The notes: generated from the letters alone by a model not told the origin. A DNA stretch of 64,000 nucleotides from a bacterium (GCA_030605695.1 JAUWHX010000092.1:996-64995), one strand, 5' to 3'; shown: positions 26,462 through 46,569, numbered from the stretch's first letter. Numbers and translations are program-made.

Positions 26462-27097
26462 TTACTCGTCTGCTAAATTCGGTATTGAGGTAATCACGAT
26501 TCCCTGAATTTGAAAATCCGTTGTCAAAACAATAGGCTTATGCTGTTCGTTTGTAGACCTGGGTTTTAATACAATTGCCTTGTCCGAAGAATGGAATTCT
26601 TTTATAGTCGCTTCATTATCAATTAAAGCAATAACGATATCTCCATTGATAGCTGTAGGTTGCTGACGCACTAAAACTAAATCCCTGTCATTTATACCTT
26701 TTTCATTCATAGAATCACCTTTAGCTCTCAACAAGAAATACCTGGATGATGGACGAGCCAATTTTGTAGACACCGGAATCATCGCCTCAATGTTTTCTTC
26801 AGCGAATATCGGCGTTCCACAAGCAACTGTACCTACTAACGGCACATCAACTGTTTGAGCCTGACCCCTATCCTCCTCTAATCCTTTCATAAATTGAAGT
26901 TTGTTGTCTGATTTGCGACGACGCAAAACGCCTTTTTTTATTAAACTATCAATAATCAAGGAGATAGAGCGTGGCGAGCGATACCTCATAGATACCATAA
27001 GCTCACGAACGGAAGGAAATTTCTCTTTGTTCACTATTGAATTTCTAATATACCGGATTGCCTCCAATTCTTTGCTTGTAAAGTCTTTATCGTTCAT
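26462..27097 (-). CDS. LexA/CI-like S24-peptidase repressor
   Basis: LexA-type wHTH (FPSVRELMVSMRYRSPRSISLIIDSL), cleavage region GTVACGTPIFAEE, Ser/Lys dyad (KGDSM, ATIKEF). Start moved to ATG 27097 on promoter evidence. Confidence 0.8.
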   Translation of the reverse strand: MNDKDFTSKELEAIRYIRNSIVNKEKFPSVRELMVSMRYRSPRSISLIIDSLIKKGVLRRRKSDNKLQFMKGLEEDRGQAQTVDVPLVGTVACGTPIFAEENIEAMIPVSTKLARPSSRYFLLRAKGDSMNEKGINDRDLVLVRQQPTAINGDIVIALIDNEATIKEFHSSDKAIVLKPRSTNEQHKPIVLTTDFQIQGIVITSIPNLADE

Positions 27098-27104
27098 TAT
27101 ACAA

Positions 27105-27132
27105 ATAATACACCATTTATATAGCTTGTCAA
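27105..27132 (-). promoter_or_regulatory. Sigma70-type promoter placing the TSS at or near the repressor ATG (leaderless mRNA)
   Basis: The minus strand reads TTGACA-16 nt-TATTAT-TTGTATA-ATG. No RBS is possible in the 7 nt before the ATG. Confidence 0.55.
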
Positions 27133-27287
27133 GTATTTTTTTGTATTTTTGAAATTTTTTCTTACCCTTTCTCAACTCTGGAGTAGAAAAATTTAGATAT
27201 ACTGAATAGATAAAGGAGGCAAGAAATTGCAGGCAAAAAATACAAAGTTTTAAATATCTTTAATGATATCCCTTATGATATCACAAA

Positions 27288-27641
27288 ATGGAAAACCGCT
27301 TTTTGATGAATCCAAGCAGAATTACTGTCATAGACCTTTATAGAATAGCTGACCTGCTTGCTCAGATAACCTGGATAGAGGAGAAGCTTGAAAAGTTGCT
27401 GGAGCAGTATGAATCCATTATCAATCCTATGTTTCAAAACCAATCCAAAGCTCAAATAGAGTTTGAAGTAGCTCATCTATCAAATACGGGCAAGTTCTTG
27501 AATAAATTAGTATTCGAGCTACACCAACAAGAAGATATAGAGACTCCATTCATAGTGGATATTGTAAGACACAAGAACAAGGCTGAACAACTTATCAGTA
27601 GAGTTTCTGAAATAATAGGTTTGGGGGCGGTTGATATTTAG
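27288..27641 (+). CDS. Hypothetical protein divergent from the repressor
   Basis: 117-aa helical ORF. TGATATC-N5-TGATATC lies directly upstream of the start. Confidence 0.45.
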   Translation: MENRFLMNPSRITVIDLYRIADLLAQITWIEEKLEKLLEQYESIINPMFQNQSKAQIEFEVAHLSNTGKFLNKLVFELHQQEDIETPFIVDIVRHKNKAEQLISRVSEIIGLGAVDI

Positions 27642-27687
27642 TGTAGAGTTTATGCGTCAAAAAATAAAACAAGGAGGTGTATAAAAA

Positions 27688-27951
27688 ATGGCTGAACCGG
27701 TAGAAGTTTTCAAATCTGGAACCGTGCAAGCATCGGTATTTCTGAACAAAGTGAAGACCAAGGAAGGAGATGAGATCGAAATTCCGACAATTAGTTTTAG
27801 AGTCAGATATAAGGATAAGAAAACTGGAGAGTGGAAGAGCACGAATAGCCTTGATGAACGCCAAATTCCGCAGGCAATTGAGGTTTTAGAAAAAAGCAGG
27901 GAATTCTTGAAGAAATTGAAGTCCCAGAAAAAAGAAGAAACACCAGAGTAA
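27688..27951 (+). CDS. Small protein, possibly a PC4/YdbC-like ssDNA-binding fold
   Basis: GGAGG RBS. ...ISFRVRYKDKKTGEWKSTNSLDERQIPQAIEVL resembles bacterial PC4-like proteins. Weak call. Confidence 0.35.
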   Translation: MAEPVEVFKSGTVQASVFLNKVKTKEGDEIEIPTISFRVRYKDKKTGEWKSTNSLDERQIPQAIEVLEKSREFLKKLKSQKKEETPE

Positions 27952-27954
27952 GTG

Positions 27955-28368
27955 CTAATATTTTTTTCTTATTTTATTCTGAAAACCGTAAGCTCTATGG
28001 TTCAAGACATTACTAATACTTCTAATAATATACGACTTGTAATTATTCCTCAGAGTAGAAGGATATACTGGAATTAAATCAAGGTTGGACTTAGCATATG
28101 CCTCTCTTTTCTTAATAATCCCTCGGTTATAATTCTGGTCGTTTTCCATACCATAATATTCCAGAACTATATGATAGTCTGTTAAATAAAAATCAGGGTA
28201 GTAAATCCTGGTCTTTGACTGTTTATCCTTGACCAAGAGTCCCTTTTCATACTCAAAAGGAATACCATATTCATTAAGAAGTTGTGCAATCTTCCTCTCT
28301 CCTTCAGACTTATAAGAGCTCTTTTGGATGTGGGACTCCAGATTATCATTATCCCCTTTATCACTCAT
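27955..28368 (-). CDS. PD-(D/E)xK / Vsr-like endonuclease-fold protein
   Basis: GERKIAQLLNEYGIPFEYEK...RIYYPDFYL...HIVLEYYG fits E...PDF...hhEhxG. The ATG overlaps the upstream stop (ATGA). Confidence 0.5.
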   Translation of the reverse strand: MSDKGDNDNLESHIQKSSYKSEGERKIAQLLNEYGIPFEYEKGLLVKDKQSKTRIYYPDFYLTDYHIVLEYYGMENDQNYNRGIIKKREAYAKSNLDLIPVYPSTLRNNYKSYIIRSISNVLNHRAYGFQNKIRKKY

Positions 28369-29618
28369 TTTCTCAACTTCTTGAATTCTCTGAACTCACG
28401 CTTTGTTATTTTAATCATAAGGTCTTCCAGAACTTTCATCTGCTTGCAAATTCTGAGAATTCCATACTCATATCGTATTGCTTCATTTATCCATTTCTTG
28501 GAATCTTCAGTCTTCCCTGCATTCAAATTGACAATTACCATTTTCAAGGAATATGTAAAATCTTTATCATATTCTTCTATCTTTTTCTCAAAATACCTTA
28601 GTTTCTCCTCGCACCCTAACTTGGCACGCTGTTCTGTAATAGTTATCCTCAGTTTCTTCTTCAGATTATCAGGTAATTTTCTATATCTTTCCCTCAATGA
28701 CTCAAATACTCTTAAATCAAACCTCATTAGCTTAGTATCAATATCTTTCAGAGCAGCCAATAAACGAGTAGCTTCATGTTCCCTGGGAACAATATCAGCA
28801 ATTTTCTGCGAAATAAGCCTTCTACCTTCTGCTGAGCCTCCATGCTCATCTGTAATTTTCATAATCTCCTGCAGGTCTCGGATAATTTTCTTGCTTTCCT
28901 TCATCTCTTTTTTAGTAATCCTTTCCAGTCGACTACGAATTATCGCTTTTTCCTGTTTTTCTTCTTTAGGAAGCCTGAGGTCTCTGGCAGTCTCAACTGG
29001 CTGTTTCACCTTCCTCGCAAGTGTTCTCATTGCCTCCTCACTTCTTGGAAAAAGTGCTCTGACTCCTTGAAATAATGCAATAAATACAGCTATCAATAAA
29101 ATACTGTGCAAAAAAGCTGTCCACTCATTTTTCTGCATCCAATCAAAAATATTTGGTGAAACAGCTCTCATAGAAAAATAAAGCATTACAACAGTTGCTG
29201 AACTTGAGAGTGTCCTATTTGCTGTCAGTCTCTGTAATCCCTGGAATATGGTTATACCTATAAGGATGGTGAATATACCAGCAGCCACAGGGCCAAAAGA
29301 CCGAAGAGACCATCCCATCTGACGCTCCATTAGTACAAGGGAAATAGCCAGGACAATACCGACTCCTGTAACTATTGCTCTTCCGCCACGATTCTCTCCA
29401 AACATCTTGCCCAGAGTCACTTTGGCTATACCGACAAAAATCACGAGATAGATTGCCAGATCCCATACCGTGCTGTATTTGTCATAGGCTCTTGCAATAT
29501 CCAGCCCTGCAAGTGGGGCGAATAGCTGGTCCAGAATATTTTGGGCACTGACCTCTGGGATAAAAACTGGAACTAATATAAATAGGCACAGAATTGCAAG
29601 TATCACCACTTTTTTCAT
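28365..29618 (-). CDS. Membrane protein: signal peptide, about 4 TM helices and a roughly 215-aa charged helical domain
   Basis: MKKVVILAILCLFILVPVFIPEVSA, hydrophobic helices to about aa 200, then a K/E/R-rich coiled-coil-like region. No family recognised. Confidence 0.55.
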   Translation of the reverse strand: MKKVVILAILCLFILVPVFIPEVSAQNILDQLFAPLAGLDIARAYDKYSTVWDLAIYLVIFVGIAKVTLGKMFGENRGGRAIVTGVGIVLAISLVLMERQMGWSLRSFGPVAAGIFTILIGITIFQGLQRLTANRTLSSSATVVMLYFSMRAVSPNIFDWMQKNEWTAFLHSILLIAVFIALFQGVRALFPRSEEAMRTLARKVKQPVETARDLRLPKEEKQEKAIIRSRLERITKKEMKESKKIIRDLQEIMKITDEHGGSAEGRRLISQKIADIVPREHEATRLLAALKDIDTKLMRFDLRVFESLRERYRKLPDNLKKKLRITITEQRAKLGCEEKLRYFEKKIEEYDKDFTYSLKMVIVNLNAGKTEDSKKWINEAIRYEYGILRICKQMKVLEDLMIKITKREFREFKKLRK

Positions 29619-29740
29619 TCTGATGGTTAGAATACATTTCTACTATAATAATTTTGCGGTTTTTAAGCGGATTCTGGAAGAAAGTTTTTTATATGATTGA
29701 TGTTTTATGAGTGCAGTGGAATTTATGAGTGGAGATAAAG

Positions 29741-30832
29741 ATGGATATTGAGGACTACCTTGCTAAGAGAATGAAACTCGCTAAAGCTCACCGGAATAAG
29801 ATAAAGGACTTCAAGGTATTTGACTTTAATTATATTCCTGCGAAACCGATTATGAGAGAAGAAATTAAGCCTGTGATTGATGCTATGGTTATGTATCAAA
29901 AAGCTTGTCTGAGCCACTCGGCACTTTTGGTGGGGTCAAAAGGAAGCGGCAAAACTCTTATGGTCAAGTACCTTCAGAGACTCTTTGAAAATAAAATAGG
30001 TCTTACAGTCAAGTATGCTAATTGTAGAAGTAACAACACTTCTTTCAAAATTATTGCCCATCTTACCAATTCCAGGGCAAGAGGGTGCTCTCTTTCAGAA
30101 CTATGGAAAAGGTTTGAAGAGATGTATCCAGGCAAAACTGTTGTTATTCTTGATGAAATAGACCTTATTTCTCCTAAAGATAGAAATAAAGACATTCTCT
30201 ACTTGCTAAGTAGAAGCGAAAATAACTATATGACCATCATCCTGTCAAATAACCCAAAATTCTTGTATGAGCTTGATGCACCTACAAGAAGCTCATTACA
30301 GCCTGAGATTATTTATTTTAAGAACTATGATGCCTTACAGATGTTTGAGATACTGAAAGCACGAGCTACAGAAGGAATCAGGAAGCTTTCGGCAGGAATA
30401 TTAAAGAAAATCAGTGCACTCACAGTTCAGAACACAAACTCTGATGTGAGGGTAGCTATAAAGACATTACTATATTCAGTTATAGAATCCAACAAGAGTA
30501 CCCAAGAAAACTTTGAGAATGCTCAGCGTGATATAGTAATTGATATGATAAATGACCTTAATGACAAGAATATTCTGGCTTTGAAGGCAACATCCGCAGA
30601 CAGAAAAAAGTTTGTTAAAGATGTCTACAAGGGATATGTAAAGCTAAGCAACCTCCACAAGGAGAAAGCATTCTCATATGTCCATTTTTATAATAATTTA
30701 AGCTATTTACAATCTCTGGGGCTAATATTACTTGTTTCTACCAAGGTAAATCGTGCCTACACATACAGAATATCCTTATTATTCGATGAGCAGGTTCTTA
30801 ACAGTGTTTATTCTATGCGTTTTGGTAGGTAG
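29741..30832 (+). CDS. Orc1/Cdc6-type AAA+ ATPase with a C-terminal winged helix
   Basis: FDFNYIPAKPIMREEIKPVIDAM...ALLVGSKGSGKTLMV (Walker A), VVILDEIDLI (Walker B), ILYLLSR...IILSNN, NSDVRVAIKTL. The WH-like tail reads SYVHFYNNLSYLQSLGLILLV. Start at ATG 29741 after GGAG. Confidence 0.75.
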   Translation: MDIEDYLAKRMKLAKAHRNKIKDFKVFDFNYIPAKPIMREEIKPVIDAMVMYQKACLSHSALLVGSKGSGKTLMVKYLQRLFENKIGLTVKYANCRSNNTSFKIIAHLTNSRARGCSLSELWKRFEEMYPGKTVVILDEIDLISPKDRNKDILYLLSRSENNYMTIILSNNPKFLYELDAPTRSSLQPEIIYFKNYDALQMFEILKARATEGIRKLSAGILKKISALTVQNTNSDVRVAIKTLLYSVIESNKSTQENFENAQRDIVIDMINDLNDKNILALKATSADRKKFVKDVYKGYVKLSNLHKEKAFSYVHFYNNLSYLQSLGLILLVSTKVNRAYTYRISLLFDEQVLNSVYSMRFGR

Positions 30833-30991
30833 AGTGTGCACAGTTTATGCGTCAGCACAGATTTTGGATGCAGGTATGTTTGCAAATTTTATACTATATC
30901 TTTCAATATAGAAAATAATAATATAATAAAAAAAGAAAACCTAACATTTTATTATTTAGTTTCACGTGTAAACTCCACACACACTCTTAAG

Positions 30992-31276
30992 TTAGGACTC
31001 TTGGTCTTGCACACAGACTACATAAATTCTTTTGATACAAGCTTTGTTCATTGGCTCGGTCTTGTTAAAGCAGGCAGGGTCAATTTCCCTGTAGACCATA
31101 ACAGTGCTGTTTGGACTGTATGTCTTGCAGAGGTCCATATCAACTTCTAAACACCTATTCGTTGATACGAGTATTATTGTAGCATGAATTGCCAGAATTA
31201 TTGAGAACACCAATATTAGAAGTAGTAATTTTCTTGTAATATCTTCCCTGAGCCACTTATGGAGACGTTTCTTCAT
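30992..31276 (-). CDS. Possible small single-pass membrane protein
   Basis: 94-aa ORF with an N-terminal TM helix (LLLLILVFSIILAIHATIILV). No clear RBS. It lies in an otherwise non-coding AT-rich gap. Confidence 0.3.
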   Translation of the reverse strand: MKKRLHKWLREDITRKLLLLILVFSIILAIHATIILVSTNRCLEVDMDLCKTYSPNSTVMVYREIDPACFNKTEPMNKACIKRIYVVCVQDQES

Positions 31277-31599
31277 GCAAGTTCAGAATATGCACAAATA
31301 TATAAGCTTTTTGTTAGAATATAGCTCAAACGCCAAATAAAGCCTGCTGAGGCATTTTTTCTTATGGGGTAATATTCTGTGATACCTTTGAAAATTCAAA
31401 TAGCAAGAAAAGAAAGGGGGTTCCGCACCTCCCCCAAAGAAAAGAAAAAACTTGCAATTTTCAAAATTATAATTAATAATTAAATGCAAACATTGCAAGC
31501 AAGAACAACTCATAGGTAATCATATAGAATGGATTAAATATCATATTAAGAGGTCTGGATAGATGTCCCAAAAAAGTATAAAAAAATAGAGGAATAAAT

Positions 31600-34500
31600 A
31601 TGTCTGCTTTAGACAAGGATACAAAATTAGAATTTCCTCACGTGTTGGTAATAGATGCTTCGGCAGGCTCAGGCAAGACTCATACATTAACACAGAGATT
31701 TGTTCAACTTATTCTATCAAATCAGATATCCCGAAACGAACTGGCAAACGTTTTAGCAATCACATTTACCAACAATGCGGCGAGAGAGATGAAAGAAAGG
31801 ATTCTCAATTGGCTCAAGAAACTTGCTTTTGACGAAGACTGTGACGAAAAAAGCCAGACACTTGAACTTGTTGACATAACTTCTCAAGAATTGTCTCAGA
31901 AGGCCACGAAAGCAGTTGAGAATATCCTCAACAGATATTCTGATTTTCATATCCAGACCATAGACAGCTTTATGAGCCAGGTTCTGCGTTCATCCGTGAT
32001 TGAACTGAAGTTACCTCCAGGAGTTGAAGTTACGAAAGCTTACGATAACCTGCTTGACTACACCCTGTCGGTTATGTTAAAGGAGGTTGGCAAGGGTACG
32101 GATAAGTCTCTTGAAAAGGAAATCCAGGAGTTCCTTGATTTGCTGATTCAGGAGAAAGGAAGCTTTCCCTGGAGAGCGGTTGAAGCAGTTAGAAACACAT
32201 TTAACGATTTCCTTGTAAAGGAAGGAAAGGTATTAGAGGAAATAACCTTTGAAGATAAAAGAAATGCAATTAACGAGAGATTTGCTATAGTGACGGAGCT
32301 TTGGGAAAAGTTCTCGACTATGGGAATTGCTGATAAAATCAAGAAAAGCATTAAAACTGCCATTGAAGATAAAAATATAAAAACATTTATTGAAAAGTAC
32401 TCGCAAAATCTTCCCAGACTTAAGAATAACCAGGAAGCTTGCCAATCGTGGGCTGACTTGGCTCCTGTGGTGACAGAAATGGCAGAGTATTTCTCTGTAT
32501 CAAGGTACTATCATTATGGTCAGTTGTATAAGCGGTTTAAGAACTTGCTTGATAGGGTCAAACGGGAGAAAGAAATCATACATATCAATGATATTAACAA
32601 ATCGCTTTCTCATTATATAAGGAAAGAAACAGTTCCAGAAATTTACTACCGACTTGGTGATGTTCTGTATCACTTTTTGATTGATGAATTTCAAGATACT
32701 GACAGGGTTCAATGGGAAAATATGAAACCTCTTATTGAGGAGAGTCTTTCCAAGGAGGGCTCTCTTTTTACCGTTGGCGACTTGAAGCAGGCAATTTATA
32801 TGTTCAGAAACGCTGATTACAAGATAATGAGAGAAGTGGTGAAGGAAGTAGTAGCCCGGGATAATATAGGTGAGATGTATCTCCCACGCAGTGCAATTCA
32901 GAATGCGAGGGTGATTCCGCTTAAAGAAAACTATCGTTGTGGAGAAGTGATTTTGGATTATGTAGAAGGAATATTTAAGAACAAAGTGAATGGGTTAGTA
33001 GGAACTGAATTCCTCAGGGAAGATAGAACAGGACTGACGCGGTACATTCAGAATCCTTCGAAGGGCAGAAAAGGAAAGGGCTATGTGGAGACGAGAATTA
33101 TAAGTGGCGATGATGAGAATGCTGAAAAAGTTGCCTTGCTTGAAATCCTGAATGACATCATAAAAAGAAGATATAATTACAAGGACATTGCTATTCTTGC
33201 CAGAAAGAATGCCGAAATTGAAAAAATTGTGGAATGGCTCACAGAAAGTAGCATCCCGGCAGCTTCCTATAGTTCACTGGATATAAGACAGCGAAAAATC
33301 ATTATGGAAATTGTCCATTTGCTAAAGTTTCTTGATTCTCCAATAGATAATCTGGCTTTTGGAACTTTTATATTGGGTGATGTTTTTACAGAAGCTGTGG
33401 GAGCTACTTCACGGAAACTGGAGACAAATGCCATTTGCGATTTCATTTTCAAAGCATCCCATGAGGAAGGACAATCAGAGTATTTGTATATTAAATTCAA
33501 AGAATCCGAGAAATTCAAGGGTTTATGGAACACATTTTTTGAGGATATTTTCAACAAGGTTGGTTATTACCCTATATACGATCTTGTTTCACTAATTTAT
33601 AGGACATTTCGTGTTTTTGAGAATTTCCAAGAAGAAACAGGTTTTCTCTTGAAATTCCTTGAAACTGTGGGGGTTATTGAGTCAAAAGGAATGAACAGTA
33701 TAAAGGATTTGATACAAATGGTGGAAGAAGATAATGATGAATCCGTTTTTAGTATCGTTCTTCCTGATTACATAGATGCAGTTAAAGTGATGACATTTCA
33801 TAAATCAAAAGGGCTTGGCTTCCCTGTTGTAATTAATATGTTATATGATAGTGGAAGTAAAAAGGACTACACTTTCTTTCAAAAATATGGGGACGAATTG
33901 CGGCAGTATTACATAATCAAAGCTTTTACTGAAAAATCCGAGAGATTGAAGAATATATATGAAGAACACCGGTTGGATGAGAGAATCGAGTTTCTAAATT
34001 GCCTCTATGTCACAAATACACGGGCGCAAGAAGAATTATACAATATAGTGAAACGGAAAGAGAAAATTGATAATCCTTGCCTGGGTCTATTTGAGGAATA
34101 CAGCGATGGAGCGAAAAGAAAGTTTGCAACTAAGCCTCCAGTTGCACAACCTGAAAGTGTAACGCTTCCTGAGAAGGTGGAGGTCGAATTTGTCGGTGAG
34201 GAAAGAGAAGACTGGTCGATCGGAAGATTACTGGAGACAAAAAGGGGAGAGTTCTTCCATGAAGTTTTGGCCCAAATTGAGTATTTGCAGGATGAGATTG
34301 AAGTTACAGTTGATAAGCTTGTTGAAGATACGCAGAAAAACAGGAAAGAGTCATATGACTTGGGGGAAGTCAAGAAGATACTTCTCCGATTCTTGAATAT
34401 AGAAAGTGTGAGAGGATGGTTTCAAGCACAATCAGACAGGGAGATTCAAACAGAAGTGGAATATAGTGATGAACAAGGTGTGCTTTATAGGCTTGATAGA

Positions 34501-34680
34501 GTCATCATAGACATAGATAAGATAACAATAGTTGATTTCAAAACAGGTGAGGAAAAGATGAGCCATTATCGTACGCAAGTGAAGAATTATGTTAAGGTAG
34601 TCAAGAAGCTCGTTCCTCAAAAAGAGGTTAAGGGATACTTAGGATTTATAGATACCTTGGAAGTCGAAGAAGTAAAATGA
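31600..34680 (+). CDS. addA: AddA-type UvrD-family helicase with a C-terminal RecB-like nuclease
   Basis: ASAGSGKTHTL, TFTNNAAREM, TIDSF, LIDEFQDTD, VGDLKQAIYMFRNA, ENYRC, TFHKSKGLGFPVV, YVTNTRAQEEL. The nuclease part has GEFFHEVL, LDRVIIDIDKITIVDFKTGE and YRTQVKNY. Confidence 0.85.
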   Translation: MSALDKDTKLEFPHVLVIDASAGSGKTHTLTQRFVQLILSNQISRNELANVLAITFTNNAAREMKERILNWLKKLAFDEDCDEKSQTLELVDITSQELSQKATKAVENILNRYSDFHIQTIDSFMSQVLRSSVIELKLPPGVEVTKAYDNLLDYTLSVMLKEVGKGTDKSLEKEIQEFLDLLIQEKGSFPWRAVEAVRNTFNDFLVKEGKVLEEITFEDKRNAINERFAIVTELWEKFSTMGIADKIKKSIKTAIEDKNIKTFIEKYSQNLPRLKNNQEACQSWADLAPVVTEMAEYFSVSRYYHYGQLYKRFKNLLDRVKREKEIIHINDINKSLSHYIRKETVPEIYYRLGDVLYHFLIDEFQDTDRVQWENMKPLIEESLSKEGSLFTVGDLKQAIYMFRNADYKIMREVVKEVVARDNIGEMYLPRSAIQNARVIPLKENYRCGEVILDYVEGIFKNKVNGLVGTEFLREDRTGLTRYIQNPSKGRKGKGYVETRIISGDDENAEKVALLEILNDIIKRRYNYKDIAILARKNAEIEKIVEWLTESSIPAASYSSLDIRQRKIIMEIVHLLKFLDSPIDNLAFGTFILGDVFTEAVGATSRKLETNAICDFIFKASHEEGQSEYLYIKFKESEKFKGLWNTFFEDIFNKVGYYPIYDLVSLIYRTFRVFENFQEETGFLLKFLETVGVIESKGMNSIKDLIQMVEEDNDESVFSIVLPDYIDAVKVMTFHKSKGLGFPVVINMLYDSGSKKDYTFFQKYGDELRQYYIIKAFTEKSERLKNIYEEHRLDERIEFLNCLYVTNTRAQEELYNIVKRKEKIDNPCLGLFEEYSDGAKRKFATKPPVAQPESVTLPEKVEVEFVGEEREDWSIGRLLETKRGEFFHEVLAQIEYLQDEIEVTVDKLVEDTQKNRKESYDLGEVKKILLRFLNIESVRGWFQAQSDREIQTEVEYSDEQGVLYRLDRVIIDIDKITIVDFKTGEEKMSHYRTQVKNYVKVVKKLVPQKEVKGYLGFIDTLEVEEVK

Positions 34681-37499
34681 AAAAAGGAATACTTGCATAT
34701 CCATCAGTAGATATCATTCAGCTTGTGGCTAACATTCTTCTTGAGGAAAAAGAGTATTTGTCCCGTAATCTTGTGGTTTTTCCTGGAAAAAGACCGTCTC
34801 ATTTTTTGAGAAGATATTTGGCTGATGTTCTCAAATCACCCTTTAGGGCTCCCAAGCTGCTGTCCATAGAGGAATTTGTCGATTTCTGTTGTAAGCTATC
34901 AGGCAGGAGGGACAGAAGGATAAATGATATCGATGCGGTGTCTATTATTTTCAATCTACACAAGAAGAATAGATTAATTGGTAGAGAAGGCGAGGAGCTG
35001 GATATTGATAGCTTTCTTATTTGGGGTTTTAAGATATTCTCGGACTTTGAAGAAATGTACATGGCAGGAGTGAAACCGTCTGACTTGCAGAAAAGTGAAG
35101 TAATTGCAGGAGAAAAACTGCCGGGAAGTATCTACGAAAGATTAACGTCTCTGTCTGTGCTTTACGAGTCTTTTTATGAATATCTTTTGGAGAACGAACT
35201 CTCTACAAGGGCATCAAGATACAGAGATACGTTGAATACTGTTGGTGAGATAGACTTGAATGTGTTTAAGAAAGTAATTTTTGTTGGCTTTTTCGCTTTT
35301 ACTAATACGGAAAGAAAGATTTTTGAGCAGTTGAAAACAAGAGATAATGTGAGTTTTATTTTCCAGAAAGGTCATGGTATTGAATTGACTATCTCGGAGT
35401 TGAATATTGATGTTGAAGAGATGGGAGAAGACGATAAAAGTCCAAAAATATCATTTTATCGGGCGATGGATGTACACGGCGAAGTGTTCTCCCTTAATCA
35501 GGTCTTACATGAAAAGAAAGACTTTGACAGGAAAGATGTTATAGCTCTTCCATCCACAGAAAGTCTTTTCCCAATAGTTCAACAAACTCTTCCTTTTACT
35601 AACAACAACTACAATATCTCTATGGGGTATCCTTTGTTCCGTACGCCTGTCTATTCCCTTATTGAGACTCTCGGGAGGTTGCTTGAGACAAGGGAGGACG
35701 ATGAATATTTTGTTCCTGATTACTTGAGATTTGTGCTACATCCCTATGTGAAAAATATCTATTATAAAGGTGCCAGTTATCCAACAAGAATTATTCTTCA
35801 TACGATAGAGGAACAATTAGTAAAACGAAATCGAAGATTTGTCAAATTGGAGGAAATCGAAGAGGATAAATCTATTATTCAAGAATGTGTGAAAAAGCTC
35901 AAAGAAGGTAGAAAAAGCAATATCAGCACCGAGAAAGTCATAAGACACTTGAAAAAAATCCATACAGTTTTGATAAAACCCTTCGAAGATATAAAAAACG
36001 TTGAGGATTTTGGTGAAAAACTTCTTGTGTTGGTAACATTCATATCTACCAGCAGTCCAGCGAAGATGCATCCTTATACAAGGCCATTTATAAAAAGGAT
36101 GATAGAGGGAATTTATGAACTCAAAACATCAGGTTTAAAGGATGAGAAGTTCAATGAAACTAAAAGTTATCTAAAATTATTAAGAAACTATTTCCGCACG
36201 GTGACATATCCGTTTGAAGGAACTCCGGTTAAAGGTCTTCAGGTTCTCGGATTTTTGGAAACACGAAACATCAAATTTAACACGCTTTATCTACTAGACG
36301 GAAATGAAGGAATAATTCCTGATACGAAAAAGGAAGATACATTGCTACCGTATGAAGTAAGAAAGCATTTAGGACTGCCGACTTATGTGGAAAAAGAACG
36401 AATCGCAAGATACCATTTTGAAAGATTGGTGAACTGTGCTAAGGAAGTTCATATATTCTATGTTGAAAGTGCGGATAAAGAGAAAAGCAGATTCGTGGAA
36501 AAGCTTATGTGGAATCTGCAGAAAGAGCATAAAAATCTGGAACTTCAGAATCAAAAAGAGGCTTTCTTCGGAGTACAATTTAGCCAAAAGAATCCAGGAG
36601 CAATTAGGAAGAATGAGGACATGATAAAATGTCTTGAAAAGCATAGGTTTTCTCCTAGTGCGTTGGATACCTATTTGCATTGTCCACTCAGATTCTATTA
36701 CCAGTATGTTTTGAATTTACAGGAAAAAGAAGCAATCTCAGATGTTTTGGAAGCAATTAAAGTAGGTGACATAGTTCACAAGATTCTTGAGAAGTTCTTC
36801 AAACCAAAAGTAGGTCGGGAAATGAAAATCGAGGATGAGGATTACCAGAGAATGGACGAGATAGTTGAAGATCTCTTTGCAAAACATTATGGTGGAAATG
36901 TCGAAGGGGGAAGTTATTTGACTAAATTGCAGGTCAAAAGAAGAATGAGGGATGTTATTAACTTGCATAATAACAAATTTTACGATGTGGTGATTGAAGA
37001 GTGTGAAGATTGGCATGAAGGTAAGATTACTTTATCTAATGGACAGAAAGTAAACCTTGTAGGAAAAATTGATAGGATTGACAGAAGAAATGGGCAGATT
37101 TGCGTAGTTGACTACAAGACAGGAAAAAATACTGATGTGCCAAGTACTACGAAATTTCCTGCCTCGCCAAGGGAAGAATGGTACAAGACTTTGAAGTCAG
37201 TTCAACTACCTTTTTATATACTTGTATATCTCGATGAGCACAAAGATATTTCCATAAACGAAATCAACAGTTGTTTAATGCTCCTGGGAACAAAGACTAT
37301 CAAAGAGGAATTCCTCTTTAAGGACAAAACAGAGAGAAAAAAGTTCTTTGTAATGTATAGAGAAGCAATAACTACGCTAATCGGTGAAATACTAGATAAG
37401 AATGTCGAATTTTCCCCGACAAAAGATTTTGAAAAAGAATGCGTATGGTGTAGTTACAAGAATATTTGTGGCACTCAATGGGTAGTGAAAAAATGGTAG
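34677..37499 (+). CDS. addB: AddB-type subunit: degenerate helicase-like N-terminus, PD-(D/E)xK nuclease and a 4-Cys cluster
   Basis: No Walker A (VFPGKRPSHF). SPSALDTYLHCPLRFYYQYVL, GDIVHKILE, GKIDRIDRRNGQICVVDYKTGK, QLPFYILVY, CVWCSYKNIC. ATGA overlap with addA. Confidence 0.8.
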   Translation: MKKGILAYPSVDIIQLVANILLEEKEYLSRNLVVFPGKRPSHFLRRYLADVLKSPFRAPKLLSIEEFVDFCCKLSGRRDRRINDIDAVSIIFNLHKKNRLIGREGEELDIDSFLIWGFKIFSDFEEMYMAGVKPSDLQKSEVIAGEKLPGSIYERLTSLSVLYESFYEYLLENELSTRASRYRDTLNTVGEIDLNVFKKVIFVGFFAFTNTERKIFEQLKTRDNVSFIFQKGHGIELTISELNIDVEEMGEDDKSPKISFYRAMDVHGEVFSLNQVLHEKKDFDRKDVIALPSTESLFPIVQQTLPFTNNNYNISMGYPLFRTPVYSLIETLGRLLETREDDEYFVPDYLRFVLHPYVKNIYYKGASYPTRIILHTIEEQLVKRNRRFVKLEEIEEDKSIIQECVKKLKEGRKSNISTEKVIRHLKKIHTVLIKPFEDIKNVEDFGEKLLVLVTFISTSSPAKMHPYTRPFIKRMIEGIYELKTSGLKDEKFNETKSYLKLLRNYFRTVTYPFEGTPVKGLQVLGFLETRNIKFNTLYLLDGNEGIIPDTKKEDTLLPYEVRKHLGLPTYVEKERIARYHFERLVNCAKEVHIFYVESADKEKSRFVEKLMWNLQKEHKNLELQNQKEAFFGVQFSQKNPGAIRKNEDMIKCLEKHRFSPSALDTYLHCPLRFYYQYVLNLQEKEAISDVLEAIKVGDIVHKILEKFFKPKVGREMKIEDEDYQRMDEIVEDLFAKHYGGNVEGGSYLTKLQVKRRMRDVINLHNNKFYDVVIEECEDWHEGKITLSNGQKVNLVGKIDRIDRRNGQICVVDYKTGKNTDVPSTTKFPASPREEWYKTLKSVQLPFYILVYLDEHKDISINEINSCLMLLGTKTIKEEFLFKDKTERKKFFVMYREAITTLIGEILDKNVEFSPTKDFEKECVWCSYKNICGTQWVVKKW

Positions 37500-37515
37500 C
37501 ACGCCAAGATATAGT

Positions 37516-39963
37516 ATGATTACAAAAATTAATGAGTTGAAATATATCTGTAATTTTCAATGTTTTTTATGGCAAAATAAAATACCCGAATTTTCCAAGG
37601 TGAATATTATATTCGGGTACAATGGGAGTGGCAAAACAGTTTTCTCAAATGTTTTTAAGCTGTTTTCTACAAAAGAAGATACTGCTAATTTATTGTTTAG
37701 CGAACTGGCATCAAATGACAGTGATGCTTCAGTGGAAATCGCAATAGATAAGAAGAAAATCAAATACAAAGATAGTTGTCTTAAAAAGGATATTTACGTT
37801 TTCAACTCAGATTTTATTACAAAACACGTTTATGATGGGACAAAAGCGAATATATCAGAATTTGATAGTGCAGTAACTACTAAAGAACAACTTACAAATC
37901 CCAAAATTCAGCACCTTGAAGAAGAAATAAACAAATTAGAACAAAACAAAACAGAAGAAGAAAGTCAAAAGGAAGCTTTAGACAAAAAATTTGAAGAAAT
38001 AAAGGATCGTTTATCTCGCGAATTCAACCAAAATATTATTGGTAAAAGAGTTACTGTTACGCAATCATTAACAATACCAACAAAAAAAGCAGCAGAAATT
38101 CGAAAAGAATTAGATAGTTGTTATCAACAATACCAACTGAGTAAAAAGCAAGAGACTTTGAACAAAGATAAACAAATTTTAGAGGATGTAGATTTTCAGA
38201 CTATCAAAATTGATGCCCAATTAATCTCTCAGGTATTGGGAAAAACAATTTCGAAAGTTGCTCGTGAAAAAGTTGTTCAAAAATTAACACGTTATTCTAG
38301 TTTTGTACCTACAAAGGTGGAAAACCTCCAAGATTGGTTTGAAGACGGGCATTCTTTTCTACAAGATATAAAAAAGAAAGGAGAAACTAAGTGCCCATTA
38401 TGTGATAGTGATATTCAAAAAGGTATGGAAGAATTATTAGATGAATACAATAGTTATTTTAGTGAAGAACATAAAAATCTTTCTCAGCAGATTGAATTAC
38501 TAATGAGAAATATTGAAGGAATAAAGAATTTACTTTCCAATAATAAAACTATAGCTTTGCAACTTAAAAATATTTTTGATAGATATGAGAGTTTACATAG
38601 AGAAGAAAAGAATAAAGACGAGCGGGAAGATTTTAAGCTTAATAATTTAGAAACTAATCTTAAAAGCTTGAAAGAGAGACTTGCAAGCAAAAAGAATGAT
38701 TTATTAAGAACCATGACCAACAATGATTTAATCAGCGAGATAGAGGCAACAATTACAAACTACAACTCTCAAGTGGAGAAAAAAGAAAACATGAAAGATA
38801 AGTTATTAGAAAAGTTAAAGCAATCTTTTGACTCCAGTGAATTAGAAAAACAGGCAAAAGAATTTGTGAGGCAATTAACACAGGCAGAATTCAATGAACA
38901 CAATGGTGGTGAAAAAATAGAAAAATATCAAGAAATAAAGAGACAAATAGAAGGAATAAAAGCTCAGCTAATACCCATTGAAAACCAACGAAAGACAGAA
39001 GTTGATAGCTTAAAGAACGAGTCAAAATATATTAACGATTTTTTGAAAAAATCAGGAGTTCATAATTTTACAGTAGATATTGATAAAAAACAAACTCAAG
39101 AAAACATACAAATTCATTACAAAAATGGTTGTACAAGGTCAAAGTTAAAATACTCTCTTAGTGAAGGTGAAAAAACAGCATTGGCTTTCGCTTATTTTTT
39201 AAGCCTAATCAAATATGAAGTATTTGATAATACAAGAGATAATCTTGCCCAACAAACAATTGTTGTTATAGACGATCCTATATCGAGTTTGGATGAAGAG
39301 CGTTTATATACTACTGCTTACTTAATTAGTCATTCATTTAAAGATGTAGAACAACTTTTTGTATTAAGTCACAACCTTATTTTTTTAAAGTTTTTTAGTA
39401 ATATTACCACTCATGATTCTAAAGAAAGACAAGATTATTATCTTTGTAATCATAAAATGACATTAGACTCTTTACCGACAGGTTTAACAAACTACACAAC
39501 GGTATATTTTCAAAAACTACATGATATTATTGAATATCAAGAAAACCGTATAAAGTATGATGAAGTCAAAAAATTTATTCCTAATCACATTAGAGTTGTA
39601 TTAGAAACATTTTTAAGTTTTAAATTTGCTGCCTTAAAGCAAGGAAGTTCAGGAGAAAAATATTATTCTGCAGGATTAGACAAGCTTATAAACAACTTGA
39701 AAAACAAAACACATCTTTTTGAAGGATTTGTTGAAATTGAAGATATTGATAAATCCAATTTTATTGAAAAACTAGAAAAAATTAAAAGGATAACAGATTC
39801 CCAATCACATGGTGGTCCTCAAAGTATTGATGAGTTTAATTTTATAAGTGAAAATGAGCTAAAAGACATAACTAAAGATGCTTTAAACATTATAAAATAT
39901 TTAGATCAAATTCATTTTGACTCTGTTAAAGAGAAAGTTAGTAATATTACAAACTCTTCTTGA
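37516..39963 (+). CDS. RloC/PrrC-like (AAA_13-type) ABC ATPase with a CxxC zinc hook
   Basis: IIFGYNGSGKTVFS (Walker A), coiled coil with GETKCPLCDSD, LSEGEKTALAFAYFL, VVIDDPISSLD, VLSHN. The C-terminal region has PNHIRVVLETF ... DSQSHGG (R-x3-E ... H). 16 nt downstream of addB. Confidence 0.75.
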   Translation: MITKINELKYICNFQCFLWQNKIPEFSKVNIIFGYNGSGKTVFSNVFKLFSTKEDTANLLFSELASNDSDASVEIAIDKKKIKYKDSCLKKDIYVFNSDFITKHVYDGTKANISEFDSAVTTKEQLTNPKIQHLEEEINKLEQNKTEEESQKEALDKKFEEIKDRLSREFNQNIIGKRVTVTQSLTIPTKKAAEIRKELDSCYQQYQLSKKQETLNKDKQILEDVDFQTIKIDAQLISQVLGKTISKVAREKVVQKLTRYSSFVPTKVENLQDWFEDGHSFLQDIKKKGETKCPLCDSDIQKGMEELLDEYNSYFSEEHKNLSQQIELLMRNIEGIKNLLSNNKTIALQLKNIFDRYESLHREEKNKDEREDFKLNNLETNLKSLKERLASKKNDLLRTMTNNDLISEIEATITNYNSQVEKKENMKDKLLEKLKQSFDSSELEKQAKEFVRQLTQAEFNEHNGGEKIEKYQEIKRQIEGIKAQLIPIENQRKTEVDSLKNESKYINDFLKKSGVHNFTVDIDKKQTQENIQIHYKNGCTRSKLKYSLSEGEKTALAFAYFLSLIKYEVFDNTRDNLAQQTIVVIDDPISSLDEERLYTTAYLISHSFKDVEQLFVLSHNLIFLKFFSNITTHDSKERQDYYLCNHKMTLDSLPTGLTNYTTVYFQKLHDIIEYQENRIKYDEVKKFIPNHIRVVLETFLSFKFAALKQGSSGEKYYSAGLDKLINNLKNKTHLFEGFVEIEDIDKSNFIEKLEKIKRITDSQSHGGPQSIDEFNFISENELKDITKDALNIIKYLDQIHFDSVKEKVSNITNSS

Positions 39964-40159
39964 TATTAACCCGTAACAAAAGATAAATTATCGAACTATA
40001 TTGTTTTTTGAAAATATTATATCCTAATAGAAGTTACTATACCGTTTCCAACCACATTGATTCTCAAGTCTTGGTTTTGTCATATGGTAGCCTTTAAACT
40101 TTCTACTTTGGAGTTTTTTTCTTGCAATTTTCTAAACTCTATAATAAAATAGTATCCAA

Positions 40160-42250: not shown

Positions 42251-42682
42251 TCAAATTACATCTCTATCCTTCAAAGATACCCAACTTGTGTTTCCAAGTA
42301 TCACATGGTCCAACACTGGTATTCCTAAAATCTTGCCTGCTTCAGCAATTTGCTTGGTGACCTTCTTATCATCTTCACTGGGCTCTGGCTCTCCGCTTGG
42401 ATGATTGTGGACCAAAATGATATTTGCTGAATTTGCCAAAATAGCTGGTTTAAAGACTTCACGACCACAAACTGCTGATGAGGTCAAAGTTCCAATACTA
42501 ACAGTGTTAATGCAAATAACTCTATTCTTTGCATTTAAGCAAATCACCACAAAATGCTCTCTATCCTTCTTTCTCAAGCTTGACAGCAGTTTCCAGACAT
42601 CTTCAGGGTTTGTTATTGTAGGACCTAATTTCTCAGGAGCTTCTCTTACCATCTCAATCTGCACTTCTAATCCTTTGTACAT
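42251..42682 (-). CDS. radC: RadC-like JAB/MPN domain protein
   Basis: HNHPSGEPEPSEDD is the JAMM-like RadC motif. Start at ATG 42682 after GGAGG. Confidence 0.9.
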   Translation of the reverse strand: MYKGLEVQIEMVREAPEKLGPTITNPEDVWKLLSSLRKKDREHFVVICLNAKNRVICINTVSIGTLTSSAVCGREVFKPAILANSANIILVHNHPSGEPEPSEDDKKVTKQIAEAGKILGIPVLDHVILGNTSWVSLKDRDVI

Positions 42683-42703
42683 AATGACCTCCATTTTAGC
42701 TTA

Positions 42704-42743
42704 ATAATAAAACAAAACAGCCCCCACAATGGAATGGGGGCTG
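42704..42743 (-). terminator. Rho-independent terminator downstream of dnaN
   Basis: CAGCCCCCA-loop-UGGGGGCUG followed by UUUUGUUUUAUUA on the minus strand. Confidence 0.75.
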
Positions 42744-42778
42744 AAATGTTAAATGCTTAAGAAACAACGAGAAGATTC

Positions 42779-43867
42779 TTATTCAAATCTAACAGGCATC
42801 AGCAAATAGAGGTGTTCATTCTCGCTATTATCAGGCTTTAATATCATTGGAGATACTGGATTCTTAAAACTCCACTTAACCTGTTCACCTTTAATCGCAG
42901 ATACTATATCAAGCAGATATTTGGCATTAAATCCAATCTCTAAAGCATCTCCGGTATACTTGCATTCAACTCTAACCACAGATTCACATCCTTCTGCTGC
43001 AGATGTTAAGGCAAGTTCATTAGCACCTTTATCAATCTTAAGTTTCGCTAATTCATTCGACTTTTGAGCAAATACCTCAACTTGTTTTAATCCTTGAATA
43101 AGCTTCTCTCTACCTATAATCATCAGTTTATCGTTATCATCTGGGATAACTGACTCATAGGGAGGGTAGTCTCCTTCGAGAAGTCTCGTCACTACTGTTA
43201 GGTTTCCAGAAGAAAAGCCAATCATTGTTTTATCCACAAGAACCTGAATTGTATGAGCTTCCATTTTTCTCAAATGTTTTGCAATGTCTGATGGGACAAC
43301 CAGTTTTTGTTCTTGCTCAAACTCTCCCGAAATGCCAATTTCTGCCAGTCTGTGCCCATCAGTGCCAACAAGAATGAGCTTATCCTTTCTAAAATCAAAC
43401 AAAGTGCCAGACAAAACACTAGAATAAGTCTCCTTGCCTGTAAGTGCAGATACAGAGCTCATTGCAGATTGAAGCTCAGTTCTCGGAATGTATATGCCAT
43501 TTGAGCCGGGAAGAGGTTTCTCTATCGGGTAATCCTTTGGATTCGCTAAAGGCAATTTAAACTTTGAGCCATTGGATTTAATCACAAGTTGCTTATCCTT
43601 TGTCTCCAAACTCACATCTTCTTCTGGCAAAAGTTTTGAGATTTCAGCTAACTCTTTGCCAGAGACTACTACAATACCTTCTTCGTCAGTTTGACATGTA
43701 GCTTCAGCTCGTAGCCAGATATTCAAGTCAGTAGCTGTGGCTTTTACTGAACCGTTTTCAACTTGCAGTTTCACACATTCAAGTCCAGCCAAACTATTTT
43801 TCTTAATAACACTGACTACCTTGTCTAAAACTTCCCTCAAATAGGTTTGATGCATTAAAACTTTCAT
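42779..43867 (-). CDS. dnaN: DNA polymerase III beta sliding clamp
   Basis: 362 aa. ATDLNIWL, VGTDGHRLA, LEGDYPPYESVIP, IGFNAKYLLD, LLMPVR. Three-domain length. Confidence 0.9.
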   Translation of the reverse strand: MKVLMHQTYLREVLDKVVSVIKKNSLAGLECVKLQVENGSVKATATDLNIWLRAEATCQTDEEGIVVVSGKELAEISKLLPEEDVSLETKDKQLVIKSNGSKFKLPLANPKDYPIEKPLPGSNGIYIPRTELQSAMSSVSALTGKETYSSVLSGTLFDFRKDKLILVGTDGHRLAEIGISGEFEQEQKLVVPSDIAKHLRKMEAHTIQVLVDKTMIGFSSGNLTVVTRLLEGDYPPYESVIPDDNDKLMIIGREKLIQGLKQVEVFAQKSNELAKLKIDKGANELALTSAAEGCESVVRVECKYTGDALEIGFNAKYLLDIVSAIKGEQVKWSFKNPVSPMILKPDNSENEHLYLLMPVRFE

Positions 43868-43883
43868 CTCGTCCTCCTTTCAA

Positions 43884-43936
43884 TAAAAAAAGGCGTCCAG
43901 TTTACCCCGTTAATTGCGGGGCAAAGCCCAGACGCC
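43884..43936 (-). terminator. Rho-independent terminator with a nested hairpin
   Basis: GGCGUC...CCCCG-loop-CGGGG...GACGCC, followed by UUUUUUU on the minus strand. Confidence 0.65.
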
Positions 43937-43954
43937 CTTGGTTTTTAGAATACC

Positions 43955-45637
43955 CTATATGTTAGAGAGTGTGACTTGCTTCAATTTTGCAGGTAGGTCG
44001 TGGATTCTCTCTACATAAATTACTCTCTCCTTGCTAAAATACTCTCTTAACTCTAATTCATCACTTCCCTGCACACCTATACAGATTACCTTGATGTTAT
44101 AGGTATCAGCATACTGAAGCAAGTCTTCTATACTAAGCTCACCTCTCAAATCTCCATCTGTCAGGATAATAACCAGCTTCTTGTGTGCAGGTATTTCCTT
44201 TGCTAACCTCAGGCACTCTTTCAGAGCTAAAGAAAAGTTTGTGCCACCCTGAGCACTCAAGCCAACTGGAATTCGCCGTAATACAGTATCTAAAGATACA
44301 GACTTCTTGCCTTTAATCAACTGTGGCACATCATCAAATCCTAAAACCTGTGCTTTCACTCTTGGTATGGTTGAGAGTGCTTTGTAAAGAGTAGAAGCTA
44401 TCTGGATTGTGACTTCTTCTTTGGCTCCCTCTGCCATCGAACCCGAACGGTCAAAACATAAAATAATACTCGTCTCATCAATAATCCTTGCAATCCGCCT
44501 CACTTCTTTCCTGACTCTGGCTTCTTTTGGATTGGTCTTAATCTCATGGAAATGAGATGGACTAAATCGCTCTCCTACGACACTTGGAGCCATTCTCTTG
44601 ATGGTTCTCTGGAATAACATAGGTCTCAGGCTATTTCTCACCTCTCCCACAATAGACTCATTTATGTCTGGAATGCCAGGAGCTGTCTCTTTTTGCTCCT
44701 CTAAGTCATACGGTTTCTCAATACAGCTGTGCATCCTCTCTACAGACTCTTTAGCAATATCCTTCTCTACCTTTCTCATAGCTTCCCTGTATTTGTCCAG
44801 CACTCCATTTCTCTCTGCGAGTTTTTGCAGTTTAGCTGCATCACTCTTACTCAGCTTCCTGTTTCCAAAACCAGAGGATTTAGCTATCTTATCTACCATT
44901 TCAGGAGTCAGGTTACTTGCACTGGATTTGCCTGATTTCTTACCTTGCCCCTTGTCACCACCGCTACCTGCCTGTTTCTGCTTTTTCCTCTCTTCCTCTA
45001 TCCAGAAATCCTTTAATACTTTAAACAATCGCTTTACGAGTTTGGGCCTGTCTTTAATCTCTGCTTTCCGTGCTTCCTTTGCTATAGGCTTGAGTTTTTC
45101 AAAGGTCTTGTGTAGAGTGTGACTCTTGGGCAAGCTCCTGACATCCTTTCCATTAAACTTAACTCTCCTTTTCCGCATAAAGTTAATAGCTATGCCAAGA
45201 AGAGCAGAGAGTTTCTGCCTCTTTGTTTTCAAAGGCATTTTCTTAAGGTCTGTGCTTTGCTCGTAGGTTGTATTATTCAGGCTAATCGTGAAAGGAATTG
45301 AGCCGGGCCAGGTTTGAGGAGTAAAGTTAAAGTCATTGGAGTCACAGATGACATTGTTGAGTATCGCTGGTTTTGTATCGTTAGCTTCGCCACTCAAAAG
45401 GTGAGCAGATTCGTGATAAGCAAGTCCAACCACAATGGAGAAGAGGAGCTCACGGCTCGCATTTGCCACAAACTCCTCTCCAAGAAACTCTCCAAGTGTT
45501 GGCTCTGAAATTGGCAGTTGTAATACCTGTCTCGGTTTATAAATCGCACAGGGCTCAGGAGAATCTTCAACGGGGATAGTAAACCCTATCACTCTTCTAA
45601 CATAATGCCTTATATAATCAGCGAGTTCTGGTCTCAT
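43955..45637 (-). CDS. HExxH metallopeptidase-like N-domain fused to a vWA (MIDAS) domain; CobT-like
   Basis: GLAYHESAHLL (HExxH). K/G-rich linker. ILCFDRSGSM (DxSxS MIDAS), GGTNF, IILTDGD. Start at ATG 45637 after GGAGG. Confidence 0.7.
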   Translation of the reverse strand: MRPELADYIRHYVRRVIGFTIPVEDSPEPCAIYKPRQVLQLPISEPTLGEFLGEEFVANASRELLFSIVVGLAYHESAHLLSGEANDTKPAILNNVICDSNDFNFTPQTWPGSIPFTISLNNTTYEQSTDLKKMPLKTKRQKLSALLGIAINFMRKRRVKFNGKDVRSLPKSHTLHKTFEKLKPIAKEARKAEIKDRPKLVKRLFKVLKDFWIEEERKKQKQAGSGGDKGQGKKSGKSSASNLTPEMVDKIAKSSGFGNRKLSKSDAAKLQKLAERNGVLDKYREAMRKVEKDIAKESVERMHSCIEKPYDLEEQKETAPGIPDINESIVGEVRNSLRPMLFQRTIKRMAPSVVGERFSPSHFHEIKTNPKEARVRKEVRRIARIIDETSIILCFDRSGSMAEGAKEEVTIQIASTLYKALSTIPRVKAQVLGFDDVPQLIKGKKSVSLDTVLRRIPVGLSAQGGTNFSLALKECLRLAKEIPAHKKLVIILTDGDLRGELSIEDLLQYADTYNIKVICIGVQGSDELELREYFSKERVIYVERIHDLPAKLKQVTLSNI

Positions 45638-46358: not shown

Positions 46359-46373
46359 CCTGTCCTCCTTACT

Positions 46374-46553: not shown

Positions 46554-46569
46554 CTTTTCACCTCCTCTC

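Follow-up and report, generated by a model that had tools for sequence, protein, structure and literature searches.

A window of 64,000 nucleotides (nt) from an uncultured bacterium related to WOR-3/Stahlbacteria (GCA_030605695.1, JAUWHX010000092.1:996-64995; "the window" denotes throughout the whole stretch of DNA analysed) contains, between positions 31600 and 39963, three adjacent genes: addA and addB, coding for the two subunits of an AddAB-type helicase-nuclease, and a third gene, assigned by its sequence to the rloC family of ATPases. The locus is probably explained by a housekeeping addAB of the type usual in this lineage, beside which a laterally acquired, solo rloC was placed by a chance insertion. 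Chance adjacency of a housekeeping addAB and a defence gene had been considered in the initial annotation as the alternative to a functional coupling, in which the ATPase would guard AddAB; it is favoured by the lack of shared synteny and by base composition. The guard-type coupling finds no support: the order of addA and addB is normal for their clade, the premise that genes such as rloC belong to restriction-modification (R-M) loci fails, and the association recurs in none of 83 AddB loci and none of 165 RloC-family loci.

Organization of the locus

The features of the three-gene segment are listed below, with lengths in amino acids (aa); GC denotes the G+C fraction, SF1A superfamily 1A and ABC the ATP-binding cassette.

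31600-34680, + strand: addA, 1026 aa; SF1A (UvrD-type) helicase with a C-terminal RecB-family nuclease
34677-37499, + strand: addB, 940 aa; subunit devoid of Walker A, with a C-terminal PD-(D/E)XK nuclease and a 4-Cys cluster
37500-37515, + strand: addB-rloC spacer, 16 nt, cacgccaagatatagt
37516-39963, + strand: rloC-family gene, 815 aa; Rad50-like ABC ATPase, helical arm with CXXC hook, putative C-terminal domain of anticodon-nuclease type (diverged HEPN)
37500-40100, unstranded: low-GC segment spanning rloC and its 3' spacer, GC about 0.26-0.31

The three open reading frames (ORFs) are long and show strong family matches, far beyond what chance would produce. ORF calling reproduced the coordinates, the 4-nt overlap (ATGA) of the addA stop with the addB start and the 16-nt gap, all as initially annotated, and every motif then listed is present in the three translated proteins. 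The addA start is preceded by GAGGA, 8 nt upstream. No obvious Shine-Dalgarno sequence was seen in the 16 nt of the addB-rloC spacer, read directly, and a terminator scan found no + strand terminator-like site between addB and rloC. The scan for promoter-like sites was uninformative (27, against 33 expected as the shuffle mean). The gene before rloC is addB, and after it comes an unannotated ORF of 156 aa. Within the spacer of 450 nt that precedes addA, a G5/C5 hairpin (GGGGGTTCCGCACCTCCCCC, 31418-31440) with A/T-rich runs on either side may represent a bidirectional terminator.

Association of addAB with rloC in other genomes

The recurrence of the addA-addB-AAA_13 arrangement was evaluated from both sides. 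On the AddB side, 83 loci, 67 of which have at least 2.5 kb of downstream sequence, were searched within 10 kb by tblastn (E<=1e-5) with 35 AAA_13 queries, namely the RloC of the window and 34 others: no homologue was found near AddB at any of the 83. On the RloC side, the search covered 85 metagenome and other loci (0.79 Mb) and 80 viral loci (1.08 Mb), and neither AddA nor AddB was found near RloC-family genes at any of these 165; the sole near-match was a weak one, a 617-aa UvrD helicase located 3 kb away in one contig family. As a positive control, HsdM and HsdR queries were used with the same tblastn approach, and type I R-M genes were recovered at 25 of the 165 RloC loci (17/85 and 8/80). 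The method recovers the known minority linkage, at a frequency similar to the 8 in 72 that have been published (PMC2610378).

The initial statement that RloC and PrrC homologues are classically embedded in R-M loci describes, for RloC, a minority only. In published work, rloC is rarely linked to R-M genes, is often solo mobile cargo and carries an internal DNA-dependent switch (PMC2610378, PMC3458546). The four closest RloC contexts that could be obtained (44-47% identity, one 33%) are all unrelated to each other, and feature a protein kinase with DUF5128, a metallophosphatase, a second AAA_13 gene and a type I R-M system, respectively. Exact-sequence matching yielded no contig for the RloC protein and, for AddB, a single 13-kb Logan contig (SRR14876850); the latter was set aside, as it derives from the same organism, ends inside rloC and is not an independent instance.

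Composition and origin of rloC

The rloC gene has a GC of 0.285 and a GC at third codon positions (GC3) of 0.212, to be compared with 0.381 and 0.382 for addA, 0.363 and 0.359 for addB, and a GC of 0.374 for the window. In a fine profile, the drop starts at about 37500 and ends at about 40100, matching the borders of rloC plus its 3' spacer; outside this segment, GC is about 0.36 within addB and 0.35-0.40 beyond 40100. A repeat search around rloC returned no credible insertion scars, just AT-rich chance matches. By composition, rloC is foreign to its surroundings and looks like a recent, lateral arrival. The absence of synteny at 83 and 165 loci and the divergent base composition together indicate that the ATPase gene is variably present beside addAB, part of an outcome named in advance as one that would speak against coupling.

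The two families also differ in their occurrence among 2.9 million viral contigs: 126 confirmed matches to the RloC family were found in viral or prophage contigs, and none to the AddB family.

Gene order and distribution of addAB in relatives

In B. subtilis and in alphaproteobacteria the operon order is addB followed by addA, and relative to these operons the order observed here is, as initially annotated, reversed; a literature search returned no statement on AddAB gene order. As an anomaly, the reversal does not stand. Full-length AddB homologues number in the hundreds, with 38-62% identity, and come from WOR-3, Stahlbacteria, Schekmanbacteria, Nitrospinae, Eisenbacteria, Elusimicrobia, Nitrospirae and others. 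Gene order was assessed at the 66 of the 83 AddB loci that have at least 3.3 kb of upstream sequence. About 38 of them carry AddA on the same strand as AddB and immediately 5' of it (36 over the script threshold, plus L023 and L067, where hits are split), 3 carry it a few kb upstream, and 25 have no AddA within the flank, all the named ones being Elusimicrobia. AddA was found downstream of AddB at none of the 83 related loci. In the closest relatives (L009, L010), addB follows addA immediately, and the two genes again overlap by 4 nt. Judged from these loci, addA followed by addB is the standard order in the AddAB clade of WOR-3, Stahlbacteria, Nitrospinota, Nitrospirota and Elusimicrobiota.

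A scan with one genome per GTDB species, a set that does not include the genome of the window, returned 382 AddB-related loci, the best 80 of which fall in 80 different assemblies, one locus per assembly. AddB identity drops with taxonomic distance, from 57-58% in Stahlbacteria/WOR-3 to 52% in Nitrospinae, about 40% in Elusimicrobia and about 38% in Nitrospirota. Downstream of addB, most relatives carry genes of core functions: miaA (L010, L016 and L019, all three WOR-3), a Glu/Gln-tRNA synthetase (L021), a tyrA-cmk fusion (L015), a radical-SAM enzyme and a secreted peptidase. Core-gene contexts, one locus per assembly and falling identity are typical of a repair enzyme that is inherited vertically and present in one copy.

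The closest AddAB relative, with an AddB identity of 62%, is found in GCA_028716385.1 (JAQUPX010000010.1, 309-21790; locus L009). There, sbcCD-like genes lie directly upstream of addA, and DUF6119, SNF2, N6_N4 methylase and ResIII genes directly downstream of addB; the latter are defence-like, but different from those of the window.

The AddA and AddB proteins

AddA matches the Pfam families UvrD-helicase (9.8e-42) and UvrD_C (9.3e-24), and PDDEXK_1 at its C-terminus (8.4e-07). Its translation displays the full set of SF1A helicase motifs and the C-terminal RecB-family nuclease by which AddA proteins are recognized: motif I, GSGKT, at residues 23-27; II, DEFQD, at 362-366; III, DLKQAIYMFR, at 394-403; IV, NYRC; V, TFHKSKGLGFP; VI, LYVTNTRA; and the nuclease motif VDFKT at 978-982. 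The closest solved structure is B. subtilis AddA (3u44_A, 1.4e-20), and identity is 53-59% to the AddA proteins encoded immediately 5' of the orthologous addB at L009, L010, L013 and L016, the closest loci. Family matches, motifs and structural match all bear out the initial identification of a UvrD-type helicase with a RecB nuclease.

For AddB, PDDEXK_1 is matched at residues 657-931 (8.2e-39). A P-loop or Walker A was not found at the N-terminus, where the sequence reads VVFPGKRPSHF. In an alignment of 15 homologues, C669, C922, C925 and C931 are invariant, and so are the nuclease residues D799 and D812-Y-K814; the protein contains a RecB-family nuclease flanked by the four cysteines of a putative iron-sulphur (Fe-S) cluster. 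A subunit lacking Walker A, with a nuclease and four cysteines, is what had been described from the sequence, and Pfam and the alignment agree with it. The AddB profile retrieved no PDB sequence at E<=0.01.

NCBIfam equivalog models were tried for both subunits (addA_Gpos, addA_alphas and PRK13909; addB_Gpos, addB_alphas and TIGR03623). AddA stays far below their cut-offs, with a best score of 269 bits against 650 (PRK13909.1-2). AddB matches TIGR03623, addB_alphas and addB_Gpos weakly, and is also far below the cut-offs, with 99 bits against 299.6 (TIGR03623) and 67 against 486.5 (addB_alphas). By these scores, the AddAB described here is a separate clade, widespread in candidate phyla and belonging to none of the modelled subfamilies. 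It resembles AddAB of B. subtilis (3u44), B. fragilis and alphaproteobacteria in the single SF1A motor and RecB nuclease of AddA, in the RecB-family nuclease of AddB with its four flanking Fe-S-type cysteines, and in the adjacent, translationally coupled gene pair. It differs from the B. subtilis and alphaproteobacterial systems in the order of the genes and in the lack of Walker A in AddB.

The third gene is a member of the RloC family

The product of the third gene matches Pfam AAA_13 over residues 15-775 (4.5e-67), the PADLOC single-gene candidate PDC-S06 (1.7e-56) and, over residues 505-758, the PADLOC PrrC model (8.8e-13). The highest identity to any protein found is 47%. RloC proteins have been defined by a size of about 800 aa, ABC ATPase motifs like those of PrrC, and a coiled-coil insert which, as in Rad50, carries a zinc hook (CXXC); near the C-terminus they carry Arg-X3-Glu-X36-52-His, with a Ser often preceding the His (PMC2610378).

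The 815-aa protein was aligned with its homologues (21 sequences, 19-47% identity), four of which (P0003, P0004, P0029, P0035) are annotated by the Joint Genome Institute (JGI) as "wobble nucleotide-excising tRNase". The ATPase motifs comprise a Walker A (GYNGSGKT, 34-41), LSEGEK (548-553), VVIDDPISSLD (583-593) and a linchpin H619; G34, N36, S38, G39, K40, S549, E552, D586, D587, P588, D593 and H619 are invariant, in agreement with the ATPase motifs that define RloC. In the hook, CPLC (293-296), both C293 and C296 are invariant. The C-terminal motif R693-VVL-E697 ... S764-H765 has an invariant H765, R693 and S764 being nearly so; none of the motif residues, E697 included, varies more than slightly among the 21 sequences.

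In a full-length AlphaFold (AF2) model (mean predicted local distance difference test, pLDDT, of 77.9), two beta/alpha head lobes flank long helices that span residues 129-287 and 302-512. Between these helices, residues 288-301, with CPLC among them, are not helical, and the C-terminal domain is all-helical. The fold of the model is matched best in the PDB by Rad50 in the Mre11-Rad50-Nbs1 complex (7zr1_C, E 4.9e-06); next come SMC heads with coiled coil, and Lamassu LmuB. In the model, a Rad50-like head is split by a coiled-coil insert with a central CXXC, as the definition of RloC requires; binding of zinc is predicted.

The C-terminal domain gives a fainter signal. Its AF2 model (pLDDT 82.5) is an all-helical bundle, for which Foldseek found nothing significant in the PDB, HEPN toxins appearing at E of about 2. 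The C-terminal 175 aa alone gave no PrrC match in PADLOC, the sole match being PDC-S06 (4.2e-05). The single full sequence had no match in the PDB, and the RloC profile matched only P-loop regions of Rad50, AriA and RecF, and coiled coils. As the nuclease domains of RloC and PrrC are divergent members of the HEPN superfamily (PMC3710099), this weak structural signal is unsurprising. R758-x6-H765 was considered as a HEPN Rx4-6H motif and dropped, since R758 is not conserved in the alignment. The spacer between the Glu and the His of the C-terminal motif is 67 residues long, against a published range of 36-52, because of an insert of about 25 residues common to a close subfamily (P0001-P0019).

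The comparison with GkaRloC of Geobacillus kaustophilus, in which the hook residue is C291 and the nuclease triad R692, E696 and H737 (PMC2610378), shows a similar size, 815 against 804 aa, and corresponding residues, C293/C296 against C291 and R693/E697 against R692/E696, with a Ser preceding the His. With GkaRloC and AbaRloC (Acinetobacter baylyi) the protein shares the predicted Rad50/SMC head, the helical arm and a full-length AAA_13 match. It differs from known RloC proteins in its longer Glu-His spacer, in that both tRNase activity and a tRNA target are predicted only, and in its position directly behind addAB, seen nowhere else. With E. coli PrrC (EcoPrrC) it shares the ABC ATPase N-domain and the Arg/Glu/His motif of the C-terminal nuclease; PrrC proteins, however, have about 400 aa and no hook, whereas this one is twice that size, with a helical insert of about 400 residues containing CXXC. 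PrrC is consistently linked to, and silenced by, a type Ic R-M (hsd) locus (PMC3458546), whereas this gene is not in an hsd locus: the nearest R-M-like genes (22272-26091), found on the opposite strand at a distance of 11 kb, are of another kind than hsd. From these sequence features, the third gene belongs to the RloC family and is not a PrrC. The initial description, an RloC/PrrC-like ATPase with a hook and an R-x3-E...SH motif, is upheld.

Surroundings of the locus

The remaining annotated features of the window are the following.

1735-2832: PD-T4-2_A / GmrSD_N (PADLOC E 5e-154), overlapping a 175-aa ORF at 1221-1748
2920-2996: tRNA-Pro(GGG), directly beside PD-T4-2_A
10016-13370, - strand: type IV secretion coupling protein (TrwB_AAD_bind) and Replic_Relax (relaxase-like), in a block of higher GC (0.42)
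17651-20077, - strand: ABC/SMC-type ATPase, 808 aa; SMC_N, N-terminus resembling LmuB and PtuA, GC about 0.29, not AAA_13
21383-22102: rve integrase, near the 808-aa SMC-type ATPase
22272-26091: PLD-type nuclease and two methylases, R-M-like
26462-31150: LexA-like S24 repressor, phage endonuclease I-like protein, 417-aa protein of no family and Cdc6/ORC-like AAA ATPase, just upstream of addA
42251-42694, - strand: RadC, a JAB protein
42251-45649: RadC, DnaN sliding clamp and VWA protein
45600-50300, - strand: about 20 small, tightly packed ORFs of 40-148 aa, GC skew -0.46
50292-54235: AAA_5 ATPase, HerA/mad8-like ATPase and Cas4-like PD-(D/E)XK nuclease

The features at 1221-2996 may represent a pair of defence genes at a site of integration into a tRNA gene, and the two proteins at 10016-13370 are components, or what is left, of a conjugative or mobilisable element. 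The genes at 26462-31150 have no counterpart beside addAB in relatives, and a comparison of the ORFs of the window with the flanks of AddB relatives revealed no common synteny beyond addAB. The block 42251-54235 looks like an integrated element, with rloC as its leftmost neighbour. RadC-like JAB proteins, 34-48% identical to the RadC of the window, were also observed within a few kb of RloC-family genes at five loci (L095, L106, L119, L180, L181), which suggests that both are cargo of similar mobile elements. In a window so rich in defence and mobile genes, one more defence gene beside addAB is unremarkable.

Discussion

By analogy with its family, AddAB would be an enzyme for the processing of double-strand-break ends, with two RecB-type nucleases and, in AddA, one helicase motor. 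Starting at the broken end, AddA would move along the DNA and unwind it, the AddA and AddB nucleases would cut one strand each, and the Fe-S-bearing AddB would bind the end and probably scan for Chi, without ATP hydrolysis. The RloC protein, by homology to GkaRloC and AbaRloC, would form dimers kept silent by the zinc hook and the ATPase (PMC2610378, PMC3458546, PMC3874168). DNA termini, once bound, would stimulate the ATPase and set free the C-terminal nuclease, which would then cut tRNA anticodon loops and excise the wobble base, blocking translation in an infected or genotoxically stressed cell. Inducers of double-strand breaks activate RloC, with partial and temporary tRNA disruption (PMC3874168); in earlier work, double-strand breaks alone had produced no detectable activation of an RloC in its natural host (PMC3458546).

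Under the preferred explanation, rloC was inserted by accident into a region rich in defence genes and mobile elements, next to an addAB that would be the housekeeping enzyme of its host. Because of the 16-nt gap, the lack of a terminator and the lack of a visible Shine-Dalgarno sequence, it probably receives a low level of read-through transcription from addAB and is translated poorly. Such expression would fit a gene with a toxic product, and weak expression is what RloC ORFs in general suggest (PMC2610378). RloC would act independently of AddAB, and AddAB would not be guarded by it.

Several observations weigh against this explanation. All three genes share a strand; with an overlap of 4 nt, a gap of 16 nt and no terminator in between, they are in all likelihood co-transcribed in this genome, and co-transcription usually marks a functional link. 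The sensing of DNA ends by RloC and the processing of ends by AddAB touch each other, so that an interplay in cis or in trans is plausible a priori. On both sides addAB is flanked by mobile or defence-like genes, without flank synteny with relatives. Finally, the immediate RloC clade is thinly sampled: the nearest relatives reach only 44-47% identity, and most of them come from short contigs.

The flanks raise the question of whether the whole addA-addB-rloC block is accessory, carried by a mobile or defence island as a second end-processing nuclease for defence or for the recombination of the element. The left flank would fit such an island, with its type IV coupling protein, relaxase-like protein, rve integrase, R-M, LexA-like, endonuclease I-like and Cdc6-like AAA genes, and so would the right one, with RadC, DnaN, VWA, about 20 small ORFs, and HerA-like and Cas4-like genes; the lack of flank synteny and the defence-like genes downstream of addB in the closest relative point the same way. 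The explanation is nevertheless unlikely, in view of the absence of the AddB family from the viral contigs, its presence once per assembly in the best 80 of 382 genome loci, the core genes that accompany addAB in most relatives, and a composition of addAB that equals the window average, unlike that of rloC. In addition, the nearest AddAB relatives come from the same broad lineage that is suggested by the proteins of the window tailed for the type IX secretion system (T9SS).

A guard relation, as suggested in the initial annotation, is very unlikely. RloC would be co-expressed with AddAB and would monitor its integrity, or the presence of unprocessed ends, so that a Gam-like phage inhibitor would cause the tRNase to fire. 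The common strand, the 16-nt spacing and the missing terminator are compatible with it, and so is the activation of RloC by DNA termini and by double-strand-break inducers (PMC3458546, PMC3874168), since ends left unprocessed by an inhibited AddAB could be the trigger. Such a relation is opposed by the absence of the association from all AddB and RloC loci searched, where R-M linkage was recovered by the same method, and by the foreign composition of rloC. Published RloC, moreover, is a single polypeptide with an internal switch, which works in heterologous hosts (PMC3458546, PMC3874168). The model for the proposal was retron Ec48, with which the locus would share the idea alone, that of an abortive-infection effector triggered by an inhibited end-processing enzyme: neither a reverse transcriptase nor a non-coding RNA is present here, sensing of AddAB by RloC has no support, and a conserved association of effector and machinery was seen in neither set of loci (0/83 and 0/165). 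To our knowledge, Ec48 is not linked to recBCD, and the Ec48-RecBCD relation acts in trans, without gene linkage; adjacency is thus neither necessary for a guard logic nor evidence of it, and guarding neither requires nor predicts it.

Very unlikely as well is a young, one-off guard that has yet to reach other genomes, in which the incoming rloC would have been captured into the addAB transcription unit, so that the tRNase would be made in fixed proportion to AddAB and would fire on the DNA ends that build up once AddAB is overwhelmed or blocked by a phage protein.

The comparative evidence gives no reason to expect a coupling of RloC and AddAB here; if it were true, the locus would offer a natural system in which to test what RloC senses in vivo. 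As it stands, the adjacency itself matters little. The locus adds to the known RloC family one divergent member, with a longer spacer in its nuclease motif, and its relatives document a large AddAB clade in candidate phyla, in which addA precedes addB and AddB is devoid of Walker A.

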